Shown: one piece after another, positions 21,603 to 23,666 of the stretch
Layout of the letters: every line of letters begins with the position of its first letter
How positions within the stretch are numbered: the first letter of the stretch is position 1
Origin: Gemmata obscuriglobus
Lineage (GTDB): Bacteria; Planctomycetota; Planctomycetia; Gemmatales; Gemmataceae
Direction: 5' to 3'
DNA length: 32,000 nt
NCBI RefSeq assembly: GCF_008065095.1
Contig: NZ_CP042911.1
Coordinates: 8,100,001 to 8,132,000 of the forward strand
The notes under the pieces: generated by a model
Told to the model about the DNA's origin: nothing
The model's input: only the letters and a program-made list of their open reading frames with translations
Database searches by the model: none
Position numbers and translations under genes: made by a program

Positions 21603-21834
21603 TATCTACCCAGATGGCACCGCCCTCGGTCCTGGTCGTATTGAAGGGTTGTGCCGAACATGACGGCGCGATGCGGTGGTAGCAGTGTACCAGCGAACCG
21701 CCAGCTCCGGACCGGTCGGACGCCCGCGAATGTCCCGTCGGTGCCCCGCCCGTTGCGACCGAGCGGCACTGTAACGGGGGTTACAGCGCCATCTGGGTCC
21801 GCGCTGGTCGCTGGTCACTCGGGTCGCGGCTGGC

Positions 21835-22227
21835 TCACTTCGTGTCTGGGGGCACTTGAACTGCAATTCCGCGCAGGAGCATGCGCTGGACGGCCGCGAC
21901 AACCTCTTGAGCTGCGGCAAGCGCCTCGTCCGCAAGTTGGACTTCGCCATCGGGCTGCTTGGCGATTTCGGCCCGCTTCGCAACGTCGGCTACGCTCAAA
22001 TTGCTTACCTGCTCGATGCGATGCCGGACTTGCGTTTCGAGTGCGTTCTGCGAGCCGTCCGACGGGGCGCTGAACTCACCCGCCGTGCTGATTTGCGGCG
22101 CCTGCTTCGGCGCGGTCGCAATGCCCTGTCTGATGAGCTTCACGAGATCGTCAAACACCACTGGATCGGGCCGCCCTTCGGCAGGCACGAGTCGGAGTTC
22201 GAATTTCTGCTTCGCGTCTTCGGCCAC
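21835..22227 (-). CDS. hypothetical protein (third gene of the low-GC cassette)
   Basis: Track ORF 21835..22461 trimmed to GTG 22227-22225, which lies 2 nt after the upstream TAA (22232-22230) and is preceded by GAGGTG (22238-22233). The 130-aa product VAEDAKQKFELRLVPAEGRPDPVVFDDLVKLIRQG... has no recognisable family. Confidence 0.45.
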   Translation of the reverse strand: MAEDAKQKFELRLVPAEGRPDPVVFDDLVKLIRQGIATAPKQAPQISTAGEFSAPSDGSQNALETQVRHRIEQVSNLSVADVAKRAEIAKQPDGEVQLADEALAAAQEVVAAVQRMLLRGIAVQVPPDTK

Positions 22228-22229
22228 GA

Positions 22230-23228
22230 TTACACCTCGGCCGGCACGAGTGCGGGTAGGAGTGAATTGAACTGATCGAGCGTGAGTCGGGAGCCGCTTC
22301 GGACGATGTAATAGCGGTTTAGCACGTGAAACAGGTTCACGAGATCGTCTTCTAGCATCTTCTCGGTGGCCCGTTCGCACGCAAACGCCTCGACTACGAG
22401 TTCGGTCCATTGCGGAATGTGGCTTGCTACGGGCCAACCTTTCGGCAAACCTTCCGGCCACAGGGGACCAAACACCCCGGGCGAAACGGGCGTGTCGTCG
22501 TCCCAGCGCTGAGCCTCGGCGAGTTGAGATAGGTGGTCGAAGTCGCGACGGATAGCGGGCGTCACGCTGAACCCTGCCGCCTCAGCCGCTTTCATTGCTG
22601 CGTAATCTGCTGACCTCGTAGTAAAGCGCGTTGTAAATTGATTCGTATCGGCGGTGTGTGCGACGTGCCACACAGTGCGAACGAGGAGGTAACCGCCCGT
22701 CGGATACTCGGCCTGCCCCAGTTTATCGAGGTTCGTCCAACCAGCCGTTGCAATGTGACTAATGTCCTCTCGGATGGCAGCAAACGATTGAGGCAATTCT
22801 GCCGCGTCTGCCGCGTCGCTCGCGACGTCGAGGACATCCATCAGGACACGGGAATGCTTCAACCAACGCGGTTGGTCGATTCGTACATACAGTGGAAGCA
22901 CACGCCAAGCGCACCGAACCGCAAATGCGACCCGCGCCCAGCGGGGCAACACCGCGATTTCTTCTTCGGTCGGCAATATAGGCGGATTCTTGTACTCTCG
23001 TCCCGCTGGGCAAAAGCCTATGAGAAGGTCAAGCGTATCGCCGATTGCATCGTCGGCCTCTTCGCTGTAATCGGGTGCTTGTCGGAGTTCTTCTTGAAGC
23101 CCGATGATGTCGTCGTAGATCGCCCGTGTCAGACGACCGGACGCAAGTTCAACGCGTACCAACGCATCAAGCGCGGTCCACGGTCGTTCGGAAAGGGCGG
23201 CAGTACGAAGCACATTGAGGGTAATCAT
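22230..23228 (-). CDS. hypothetical protein, candidate multi-domain immunity/antitoxin protein (second gene of the low-GC cassette)
   Basis: 332-aa ORF. ATG 23228 is preceded by AGGAG with 9-nt spacing, 12 nt after the upstream stop. It is rich in A/T-ending codons, unlike its neighbours. It has a helical, acidic N-terminal ~80 aa and an LPRWARVAFAVRCAWRVLPLY helix. The immunity call is an inference from position and composition. Confidence 0.65.
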   Translation of the reverse strand: MITLNVLRTAALSERPWTALDALVRVELASGRLTRAIYDDIIGLQEELRQAPDYSEEADDAIGDTLDLLIGFCPAGREYKNPPILPTEEEIAVLPRWARVAFAVRCAWRVLPLYVRIDQPRWLKHSRVLMDVLDVASDAADAAELPQSFAAIREDISHIATAGWTNLDKLGQAEYPTGGYLLVRTVWHVAHTADTNQFTTRFTTRSADYAAMKAAEAAGFSVTPAIRRDFDHLSQLAEAQRWDDDTPVSPGVFGPLWPEGLPKGWPVASHIPQWTELVVEAFACERATEKMLEDDLVNLFHVLNRYYIVRSGSRLTLDQFNSLLPALVPAEV

Positions 23229-23240
23229 AATCCACCGCTC

Positions 23241-23615
23241 CTACTGTACTGGCCGCCACAGGTCGCGAGTATCGGCCAGTTCCTTTTGAAACTGGCCGAG
23301 TGTGCAAGTCGTGGCCGGTTGAATCAGGCAGTGCGGCGGGCGATCCGGATTCGCCATGAGTGTGGACCCGAGGTCGTCGGATTCGATCTCAAAGATCGCC
23401 TCACCTGGATTGGCTCGAAGCTGCTTTACGTCTTGTGATGTGGACAGACCCTCGCCTGGTGAAATGACATCCGCATCGTTCACCGCTCCAACATCCGGCA
23501 GCCGACGCGGGTCCTTGTTGGTCGGGTCCGTTGGGCGCACACCGAGCATGTTTCGCCTCGTGCCGATAAGGGGTTTCCCACCGGCATCCACTTTCATCAC
23601 GCGGTACAACTTCAC
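23241..23615 (-). CDS. small hypothetical protein, candidate Tse2-like/ADP-ribosyltransferase-fold toxin (first gene of the low-GC cassette)
   Basis: 124-aa ORF with a GTG start 23615-23613 and GGAG 10 nt upstream. Sequence elements are KLYRVM (aromatic-Arg), GEGLSTSQD (S-T-S), FEIESDD (E-x-E) and PPHCLIQP...TLGQF...W. The family call is pattern recognition only. Confidence 0.6.
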   Translation of the reverse strand: MKLYRVMKVDAGGKPLIGTRRNMLGVRPTDPTNKDPRRLPDVGAVNDADVISPGEGLSTSQDVKQLRANPGEAIFEIESDDLGSTLMANPDRPPHCLIQPATTCTLGQFQKELADTRDLWRPVQ

Positions 23616-23666
23616 GGGCGACGCGCTCCGACGGTTCGCGGTCGCACCCTATTGTACGTCGCCTTC

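Follow-up and report, generated by a model that had tools for sequence, protein, structure and literature searches.

Gene content of the miaB-glnE interval

This report concerns a three-gene cassette of Gemmata obscuriglobus that lies between miaB and glnE in a stretch of 32,000 nucleotides (nt) of contig NZ_CP042911.1 (positions 8,100,001 to 8,132,000; hereafter the window, to which coordinates refer unless a related locus is named). Its genes, designated A, B and C, presumably encode a small toxin-like protein of the Tse2 family (A), a larger protein whose N-terminal domain is the likely antidote of A (B), and a further small protein that is linked to the remainder of B (C). An earlier reading of the letters alone (the sequence-only reading) had described three co-directional open reading frames (ORFs) on the minus strand between the two core genes, tightly joined into an operon-like unit, and both the coordinates and the junctions given there could be confirmed. 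The comparisons draw on 42 non-redundant related loci, all of which were retrieved via A (look-ups of the encoding contigs, one scan of species-representative genomes and one metagenome scan). The interval and its borders comprise:

23667-25154, minus strand: miaB, a conserved gene that anchors the slot on its upstream side, ahead of A in 26 of the 42 related loci
23241-23615, minus strand: gene A, GTG start, 124 amino acids (aa)
22230-23228, minus strand: gene B, ATG start, 332 aa
21835-22227, minus strand: gene C, GTG start, 130 aa
21603-21834, minus strand: spacer of 232 nt between C and glnE, 87-100% identical to that of Gemmata algarum
18321-21602, minus strand: glnE, the downstream flank, directly after the cassette in 12 related loci

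The A-B junction comprises 12 nt, with a GGAG overlapping the stop codon of A, and the B-C junction 2 nt, with a GAGG upstream. The mechanically predicted ORF of C extends to 22461; the GTG at 22227 was taken as the real start because it yields a 100%-coverage match to GobsT_68470, with which the product is 100% identical, and because it agrees with the N-termini of the family. The flanking genes encode proteins that share 99.8% (MiaB) and 98.4% (GlnE) identity with G. algarum counterparts in which Pfam recognises UPF0004, Radical_SAM and TRAM domains and GlnE and GlnD_UR_UTase domains, respectively. The C-glnE spacer, which measures only about 20-30 nt in the Frigoriglobus and Fimbriiglobus loci, matched no Rfam family and contains no terminator-like site.

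Gene A encodes a probable Tse2-family, toxin-like protein

The single Pfam match of A is to PF18648 (Tse2 ADP-ribosyltransferase toxin; E-value 3.7e-4, profile positions 10-130 of 137). The toxin domain makes up the whole of the protein, in which neither a signal nor a trafficking domain was found according to Pfam and the lengths of the homologues. The latter number 120 and are, apart from a few shorter fragments, nearly all 117-149 aa long, too short to hold a trafficking domain besides. Where a source name or a record title is given, they stem almost all from Gemmataceae or other Planctomycetota. When 40 homologues were scanned singly, 32 matched PF18648 at an E-value of 0.01 or below (best 2.2e-8); a precomputed assignment to PF18648 exists for many of them, and NCBI or UniRef gives two of them the name 'Tse2 family ADP-ribosyltransferase toxin'.

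The A family was furthermore aligned by hhalign with Tse2 of Pseudomonas aeruginosa, using a query checked to be identical to chain C of PDB entry 5AKO. The alignment (E-value 8.6e-5) comprises 86 collinear columns, which join residues 36-122 of A with 58-154 of Tse2 and pair GLSTS of A with GGTSV of Tse2 and H95 with H125. In the A family R27 (within MLGVRP), D41, G56 and S58 (within GLSTS) and H95 are invariant, an acidic residue at position 77 (E or D) is conserved, and the N-terminal half is strictly conserved, as is the partner domain described below. The invariance of R27, D41, S58 and H95 in the aligned relatives indicates that A is under purifying selection. The GenBank version of A (GobsT_68490) is 102 aa long and 100% identical to A over that length; since the additional 22 N-terminal residues are nearly invariant in the family, the 124-aa protein appears to be the real product, the public start lying too late (affected region 23550-23615). 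In one metagenome-assembled genome (MAG; locus L017, 6001-7343) frameshifts appear to split both A and B, by either pseudogenisation or an assembly error.

Membership of A in PF18648 is thus weak for the window protein taken by itself and clear across its homologues, so that we assign A to the Tse2 family with moderate strength and presume it to be an NAD+-dependent ADP-ribosyltransferase. This gives substance to the suggestion of the sequence-only reading, which had named no family, that the first gene is toxin-like. Tse2 is known to stop growth from inside the cytoplasm and to be neutralised by Tsi2, which occludes its active site (PMC6099711), and its molecular target is still unknown (PMC12133291).

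An A-linked domain at the N-terminus of B

The product of B is predicted to be all-helical (AlphaFold2 model, mean pLDDT 83), and its first segment stands out by its linkage to A:

22983-23228, minus strand: BN, aa 1-82 of B, a four-helix domain (pLDDT 90-98) that always accompanies A, proposed antidote (immunity or antitoxin domain)

An ORF starting with BN follows every complete A homologue for which downstream sequence was available (about 40 of about 40 related loci), at a distance of about 10-25 nt or with overlapping genes. The linkage also holds at sites away from miaB and in tandem arrays, and in 11 loci BN occurs alone, with a short tail, as an ORF of 95-120 aa (short B). The same partner domain after A in every locus that could be judged is the pattern expected of a toxin-immunity pair, in line with the toxin-immunity type of system that had been suspected. 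The pairwise identities of A and BN covary (rho 0.55 in 19 complete sets). BN therefore seems likely, as far as its gene context tells, to be the antidote of A. It is unrelated to Tsi2 (hhalign probability 0.1%) and constitutes a separate, previously undescribed fold family.

The public annotation of B (C1280_36820) comprises 203 aa instead of the 332 aa found here, its start apparently having been placed too late (affected region 22840-23228). The UniRef name 'DinB family' attached to this truncated annotation was rejected, as none of the searches supported it.

The remainder of B and gene C

Downstream of BN the following segments were distinguished in B:

22884-22982, minus strand: start of B-core, aa 83-115, a conserved helix of the pattern LPTEEEIAxLPRWARVAFAxRCAxRVLPL
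22554-22883, minus strand: hypervariable middle, aa 116-225, predicted helices (pLDDT 59-92) that are unalignable between alleles
22230-22553, minus strand: C-terminal region, aa 226-332, with the motif RRDFDxL...FGPLWPEGxPxGWP and a strand-helix tail (DDLVNLF)

Their identities were compared in the 19 complete sets, with Spearman's rho taken against miaB identity:

A: mean pairwise identity 0.54, rho 0.50
B 1-82 (BN): mean pairwise identity 0.52, rho 0.52
B 83-115: mean pairwise identity 0.68, rho 0.34
B 116-225: mean pairwise identity 0.14, rho 0.21
B 226-332: mean pairwise identity 0.62, rho 0.80
C: mean pairwise identity 0.48, rho 0.85

The C-terminal region of B and C evolve along the species tree and covary with each other (rho 0.74).

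A search with the B profile against 1.84 billion representative proteins (E-value at most 1e-3) matched 2526 clusters. Most of the best 150 matches cover only profile positions of about 81-323, and the N-terminal limit of the region they match is the helix at aa 83-115. Some relatives of this region, here termed B-core, stand alone as proteins of 230-280 aa, while others form tandem arrays of two to four copies or are fused to Ser/Thr kinases and leucine-rich repeats (LRR). No Pfam family covers the B-core region in nine of ten sampled relatives; the tenth (P0192) has a borderline DUF416 match on its first helices (25.5 bits, cut-off 23.7), and Imm5 was met at an E-value of 0.058 in one member of the family. 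In B of the window itself, Pfam revealed no DUF416 or Imm5 match and no macrodomain or DNA-binding domain.

The profile searches yielded no family for B and C in Pfam, NCBIfam or PADLOC, and PHROGs returned only a match at an E-value of 0.036 for C. A Foldseek comparison of the B model with the PDB gave nothing significant, its two best matches being DUF416 structures (E-value 0.6-0.85, TM score 0.22-0.38). Sequence searches of the PDB with A, B and the profiles of A, C and BN produced no real match either. C is helical, its AlphaFold2 model showing three helices at low confidence (pLDDT 66), and neither a chaperone or SecB-like match nor any database family was found for it.

C is tied to the long form of B, which it follows in all 21 related loci with downstream sequence as well as in the window; it follows the short form in none of 11, and in two of these (L007 and L026) the order is miaB-A-short B-glnE. 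A comparable arrangement was seen around stand-alone B-core genes, since in five of five sampled contexts these are followed by an overlapping gene of 137-171 aa. The head of the latter resembles that of C (LKVTLVLRDE..DPSILDIVRVAIEDGL versus FELRLVPAEGRPDPVVFDDLVKLIRQGI). The C hidden Markov model (HMM) finds none of these small downstream genes, and the hhalign probability that joins them to C, 26% (E-value 7e-4), is no more than suggestive. A 17-nt direct repeat (D1, 22136-22152 and 22333-22349) encodes DDLVKL in the N-terminus of C and DDLVNL in the C-terminal tail of B. The two proteins thus seem to share a strand-loop-helix unit, DDLV(N/K)L, which may represent a heterodimer interface or a partial duplication.

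Based on these comparisons we conclude that B-core and its C-like partner probably form an older two-gene module widespread in planctomycetes, onto which A and BN would have been grafted in the Gemmataceae. Of the three-part layout drawn in the sequence-only reading, the toxin-like first gene has stood; B, however, is BN fused to a separate, widespread module, and C belongs to that module.

Several further B-core loci were encountered. In L047 and L048 (1957-5406) a B-core variant with a transmembrane and coiled-coil N-terminus has two small paralogous membrane proteins encoded ahead of it and a C-like gene after it, and the vicinity also holds genes for a PAAR-motif protein of 96 aa and for a ClpB/ClpV-like AAA+ protein. 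On an IMG/VR contig (L055, 3617-5899) and in protein P0318, a B-core that lacks the C-terminal tail is joined to a Ser/Thr protein kinase and to leucine-rich repeats; one of these fusion genes stands on a contig classed as viral, probably in a prophage region. L007, the cassette of which has a short B and no C, carries an additional stand-alone B-core gene upstream of miaB (3345-3851, minus strand).

Expression signals

Two elements precede A in the 51-nt spacer that follows miaB:

23651-23656, minus strand: -10-like box TACAAT, 41 nt upstream of the GTG of A and 11 nt past the miaB stop codon, the probable own promoter of the cassette
23626-23629, minus strand: GGAG ribosome-binding site of A at -14, a position kept in most upstream regions

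Among 39 unique regions upstream of A homologues, 32 have a TAnnnT box at -50 to -25, mostly at about -41 (shuffled sequences: mean 7.5, maximum 15), and the box was also found ahead of the internal copies in tandem arrays. A generic sigma-70 scan missed the TACAAT box, owing to the weak -35 element. In 8 of the 39 regions a 5-bp hairpin (CCGAC-N5-GTCGG) covers the ribosome-binding site of A (shuffles: mean 0.6, maximum 4), which may indicate translational control of the toxin gene. RNAalifold revealed no consensus fold of the 5' leader of A, the spacers matched no structured RNA in Rfam, and no terminator-like site was detected on the coding strand between miaB and glnE. Judging from these signals and from the junctions, the cassette presumably has its own promoter, and A, B and C are presumably translationally coupled.

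Synteny and base composition

The sequence-only reading had regarded the cassette as a foreign block wedged between two core genes. This does not hold, because the order miaB-A-B-C-glnE is conserved in G. algarum (two strains), a Gemmata sp. MAG, Frigoriglobus tundricola, Frigoriglobus MAGs, a Fimbriiglobus MAG and several Gemmataceae and Gemmatales MAGs. At least 20 genomes or MAGs, from several genera, have this order at this site. Synteny within the lineage had been named in the sequence-only reading itself as part of what would refute it. In 26 of the 42 loci A comes immediately after miaB, most others having too little upstream sequence or being second sites, and glnE is not adjacent in several (L001, L016, L043). 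Every sampled genome with both flanks has the cassette at this one site, and no empty miaB-glnE site was met among loci retrieved via A, a route unable to show empty sites. At the borders of the cassette no repeats, integrase or tRNA were detected, the Rfam scan having included tRNAs, and relatives of A were absent from the plasmid, phage and viral-contig collections searched.

The composition of the cassette is atypical. The G+C content is 0.58-0.61 over 21901-23700, compared with a window mean of 0.688, and four hand counts made in the sequence-only reading (32, 32, 38 and 41 of 60) proved exact. Its remark on unusual codons is likewise borne out by the G+C content at third codon positions (GC3), which amounts to 0.656 in A, 0.616 in B and 0.702 in C and to 0.921 in miaB, 0.942 in glnE and 0.988 in gnd. 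These cassette values are the lowest among 12 window genes measured, the nearest being a small lipoprotein-like gene at 0.73. Within the cassette GC3 rises from 0.56 in BN over 0.61 in the hypervariable middle and 0.69 in the C-terminal region of B to 0.70 in C, that is, from the most variable to the most conserved segment. A GC3 of 0.62-0.70 beside 0.92-0.99 in the flanking genes is the kind of composition looked for in a genomic island, yet in the related loci every lineage shows the deficit when the cassette genes are compared with miaB and glnE. The cassette therefore combines a syntenic position, which speaks against foreign origin, with codon statistics that depart from those of the host in each lineage. 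The deficit may be due to weak expression, to selection that slows the translation of a toxin operon, or to less GC-biased conversion in a region in which divergent alleles are unable to recombine.

The syntenic order, the bare borders, the lack of relatives in the mobile-element collections and the deficit shared by every lineage identify the cassette as an old resident of its slot rather than a recent insertion, and the slot after miaB is ancestral in the Gemmataceae.

Replacement of alleles within the slot

The DNA of G. obscuriglobus was compared with that of G. algarum JC673 in bins of 60 nt, giving the following identities along the minus strand:

miaB and the 51-nt spacer, up to 23616: 98-100%
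A: 53-72%
B codons 1 to about 228: 18-83%, mostly 28-58%
B codons about 229-308: 65-78%
from 22303 onward (the last 25 or so codons of B): 97-98%
C: 80-92%
glnE: 93-100%

The differing part is thus bounded by sharp breakpoints at the start codon of A (23615) and near the 3' end of B (about 22303):

22304-23615, minus strand: swapped allele, consisting of A and B codons 1 to about 308, which differs from G. algarum between near-identical flanks

At the protein level A is about 55-56% identical to its G. algarum counterpart, B 46% and C 90%, beside 100% for Gnd and the values given above for MiaB and GlnE. The A protein of G. algarum shares 0.78-0.85 identity with the alleles of Frigoriglobus and other Gemmata, in which miaB identity is 0.86-0.91. 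The G. algarum allele behaves roughly vertically. The window A is at most 0.69 identical to any allele of the fetched loci and 71-74% identical to its best database matches. Since it is the window allele that is the outlier, the segment 23615-22304 must have been replaced in situ on the way to G. obscuriglobus, and the divergent allele that took its place came from a donor outside the present sample. The A-B allele of G. obscuriglobus is xenologous, through exchange of the allele in its place and not through insertion of a cassette. The horizontal acquisition suspected earlier thus fails for the cassette as a whole, given its synteny, and survives in the narrow sense of this allele, 56% identical in A to that of the sister species.

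A second, independent unit of exchange lies inside B, as the G. algarum strains JC673 and JC717 have A proteins that are 100% identical and 98% identity in B 1-82, and only 13% in B 116-225. Divergent alleles between conserved flanks in close relatives, a feature of polymorphic toxin-immunity loci, are accordingly present, and phylogenetic discordance was seen. Synonymous sites between alleles are saturated.

Some related loci display rearrangements of the slot. In L014 (4560-5290) the junction of the miaB 3' end, the spacer and the A 5' end is duplicated; the first copy comprises an A of 31-35 codons and an intact 101-aa short B, in effect an orphan BN (an orphan antidote), and the second is a complete A-B-C set. 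L010 has the order A-B-A'-B'-C and L034 the order A-short B-A. Orphan modules and tandem pairs of this kind are present in related loci and absent from the window. These layouts point to homologous exchange through the conserved junction as the route of replacement. A diversity-generating retroelement or silent cassettes as the source of the variable middle of B were considered and rejected, no repeat or template copy being found within 20500-25500.

Other low-GC regions of the window

The remaining dips in G+C content hold ordinary genes, so that the dip of the cassette differs from them. The one at 29.4-30.3 kb (genes at 29166-29863) corresponds to rpmI-rplT, encoding ribosomal proteins L35 and L20, with a normal GC3 of 0.89-0.91. 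The one at 9.9-11.1 kb (within 9900-12050) contains the 143-aa lipoprotein-like gene with a GC3 of 0.73 and no Pfam match. Next to it lies a DUF1559 gene (GC3 0.89) with a prepilin-type N-terminal methylation motif, a kind of gene common in planctomycete genomes. Upstream of the lipoprotein-like gene, 8770-10158 encodes a 462-aa protein with two FHA domains that also matches the profile of the Yop-YscD cytoplasmic domain.

Comparison with known systems

The closest known arrangement is that of Tse2-Tsi2 of P. aeruginosa (5AKO), which belongs to the H1 type VI secretion system (T6SS) and in which, too, a small stand-alone PF18648 toxin gene is followed by a small gene for an all-helical partner. 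The Tse2 toxin is cytoplasmic and Tsi2 is thought to occlude its active site, and the same is proposed for A and BN. However, A is shorter (124 versus 158 aa) and a distant relative of Tse2, and BN, in addition to being unrelated to Tsi2, is usually fused to a second module of about 250 aa and accompanied by a third gene. Moreover, no T6SS context was seen, and the locus is fixed beside miaB with alleles being swapped.

DarT-DarG, ParT-ParS and CmdTAC are systems in which the gene of an ADP-ribosyltransferase-type toxin comes first and an adjacent gene provides a cytoplasmic neutraliser, CmdTAC consisting of three genes. The cassette shares with them the toxin-first order, the presumed type of toxin and the neighbouring neutraliser, and with CmdTAC the three-gene layout. 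It also has the close spacing of toxin-antitoxin genes (12-nt and 2-nt junctions) and a conserved -10-like box, from which coupling and promoter activity may be presumed. It differs from these systems in that no sequence relation and no PADLOC match were found, C gave no SecB-like match, B has no macrodomain, and the position is conserved across a bacterial family instead of patchy.

Swapping of modules and orphan immunity genes at conserved loci are known from the T6SS auxiliary clusters of Vibrio cholerae and from the orphan arrays of contact-dependent inhibition (CDI) and Rhs loci. Near-identical flanks around unrelated alleles, sharp junctions, tandem pairs and an orphan immunity domain beside a truncated toxin recall these loci. 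Unlike them, the cassette has no evident delivery apparatus or trafficking domain, and the middle of B turns over independently of the toxin.

CapRel(SJ46) is a fused antitoxin-sensor protein, and B resembles it in that a putative neutralising domain is joined to a hypervariable domain evolving independently of the toxin. In contrast to CapRel(SJ46), the toxin of the cassette is a polypeptide of its own; the two systems share no homology, and any sensing by the cassette is purely hypothetical. Finally, DUF416 (PF04222, YjaG) and Imm5 (PF14423) are all-helical as B is, and the first B-core helices match them at the borderline in single relatives, but neither family has anything that corresponds to the FGPLWPEG motif or to the C-terminal tail.

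Proposed mechanism and alternative explanations

We consider it most likely, and somewhat more probable than not, that the cassette encodes an intracellular toxin-antidote pair that works independently of a T6SS and has been grafted onto the B-core/C module. A would be a small cytoplasmic growth-arresting toxin of the Tse2 family, transcribed from a promoter just past miaB and translationally coupled to B. BN would bind and block A in the way Tsi2 blocks Tse2. In the long form BN is fused to B-core, which would act together with C, and this module probably controls or conditions the release of A, as a sensor or regulator. Alleles of the slot would be replaced piecemeal by homologous recombination via the conserved miaB 3' end, spacer and A 5' end on one side and the conserved 3' end of B on the other. 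Intracellular action is proposed because the homologues have no trafficking domain, no injector genes were seen nearby, neither in the window nor in the annotated related loci, and G. obscuriglobus has been reported to lack a large T6SS gene set (PMC5394234).

Several observations weigh against this proposal. A scores 21.6 bits on PF18648, which is below the gathering cut-off of 26.6, the hhalign probability for the A family and Tse2 is only 60%, and Tse2 was not among the PDB sequences that an HMM search with the A profile retrieved; the ADP-ribosyltransferase fold and NAD pocket of A are putative. BN has no detectable similarity to known immunity or antitoxin proteins and no Pfam or PDB match, and its correlation with A (0.55) is no stronger than that of A or BN with miaB (about 0.5). 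None of the three proteins matched a PADLOC system, toxin-antitoxin and defence genes do not usually keep one position throughout the genomes sampled, and the roles given to B-core and C draw on linkage and variability only.

It is possible, though rather unlikely, that A is instead an exported interbacterial weapon, with BN or B serving as kin-protecting immunity and allele swapping as kin discrimination. The one member of the family to have been characterised is a T6SS effector whose immunity gene lies downstream, and the hypervariable pairs between conserved flanks, the tandem pairs and the orphan BN beside a truncated toxin (L014, L010, L034) form a pattern that is classic for effector-immunity loci. 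In L015 (5029-8445) a second-site pair of A and short B, away from miaB, directly follows a gene of SUKH-1/SMI1_KNR4, a known immunity superfamily (PMC3113570), and in L047 a B-core variant has a PAAR gene in its vicinity. Against export, about 120 homologues have no space for a trafficking domain, secretion genes did not turn up near the cassette, either in the window or in the annotated related loci, and G. obscuriglobus is said to lack a large T6SS gene set (PMC5394234). Furthermore, the middle of B changes while the toxin stays identical, and an immunity specific for A alone leaves this unexplained. The L015 pair precedes genes for large proteins in which leucine-rich repeats and the motif 'RLVYADWLDE' were seen by eye.

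For the intracellular pair that we favour, a function as a toxin-antitoxin or abortive-infection system seems somewhat likelier than kin warfare, because the middle of B diversifies independently of the toxin; the orphan BN, the tandem arrays and the SUKH-1 neighbour in L015 fit warfare equally well. We tentatively put forward a more specific version, although it is improbable as it stands: B-core and C would be a planctomycete sensor module whose hypervariable helices recognise invaders, and BN, captured by it in the Gemmataceae, would let it gate a Tse2-type toxin, amounting to a new kind of abortive infection at a fixed slot.

It is doubtful that the resemblance to Tse2 is too weak to mean anything and that the cassette is a lineage-specific, non-toxic module whose variability reflects low constraint. 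Such a view could build on the Pfam score, the hhalign probability and the lack of a PDB sequence-profile match just mentioned, as well as on the fact that nothing annotated matches B or C. But 32 of 40 relatives match PF18648 over its full length, the aligned motifs are collinear with those of Tse2, the strict conservation of the N-terminal half of A and of BN argues for a function, and identities of 13-60% beside 99% in the flanks are beyond what relaxed constraint alone would produce on that time scale.

Even less probable is a domesticated, non-lethal ADP-ribosyltransferase that regulates tRNA and translation (miaB) or glutamine synthetase (glnE), with B and C as its regulators. The fixed position between miaB and glnE across a bacterial family, the conserved catalytic-looking residues and the agreement of C and the C-terminal region of B with the species tree would suit such a role, as would the ADP-ribosylation of glutamine synthetase and of nitrogenase regulators known from other bacteria. 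Core regulators are not expected, however, to be 56% identical or swapped with sharp breakpoints beside flanks of 98-100% DNA identity, nor do A-BN pairs away from miaB and glnE and in tandem, a glnE that is non-adjacent in several loci (L001, L016, L043) and the atypical codon usage fit this role.

That the whole block is a recently acquired foreign island is very improbable in spite of its low G+C content and GC3 and of an A-B allele without close relative, given its constant order and site in at least 20 genomes or MAGs, a C that is 90% identical to that of G. algarum and follows the species tree, the GC3 deficit common to all lineages, borders free of mobility genes, direct repeats and tRNA, and the absence of A from the plasmid, phage and viral collections searched.

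Significance

None of the papers searched names both Gemmata and Tse2, and only the automated annotation of some A relatives was already known. The combination of a Tse2-type toxin without T6SS, a new partner domain, its fusion to a widespread module without Pfam family, and a fixed slot with modular allele turnover has not been described previously.

These results show that a syntenic slot of housekeeping appearance can hide allele turnover, which synteny alone would dismiss and G+C content alone would mislabel as an island. Furthermore, B-core and its C-like partner represent a large family without Pfam entry and with a hypervariable centre that occurs throughout planctomycetes and merits a study of its own. 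Should the cassette be non-toxic, it would merely be a lineage-specific curiosity; should the sensor-module reading be true, it would provide the first evidence of Tse2-family toxins working outside type VI secretion. Tse2 is among the founding effectors of the T6SS, and a T6SS-independent branch of its family, with about 120 members, a minimal toxin of 124 aa and a partner of about 82 aa, would offer a fresh route to its mechanism, for which the conserved residues, the natural specificity variants and an easy toxin/antidote assay could be used. The ecological role of the cassette in Gemmata and its relatives may be phage defence or kin competition.

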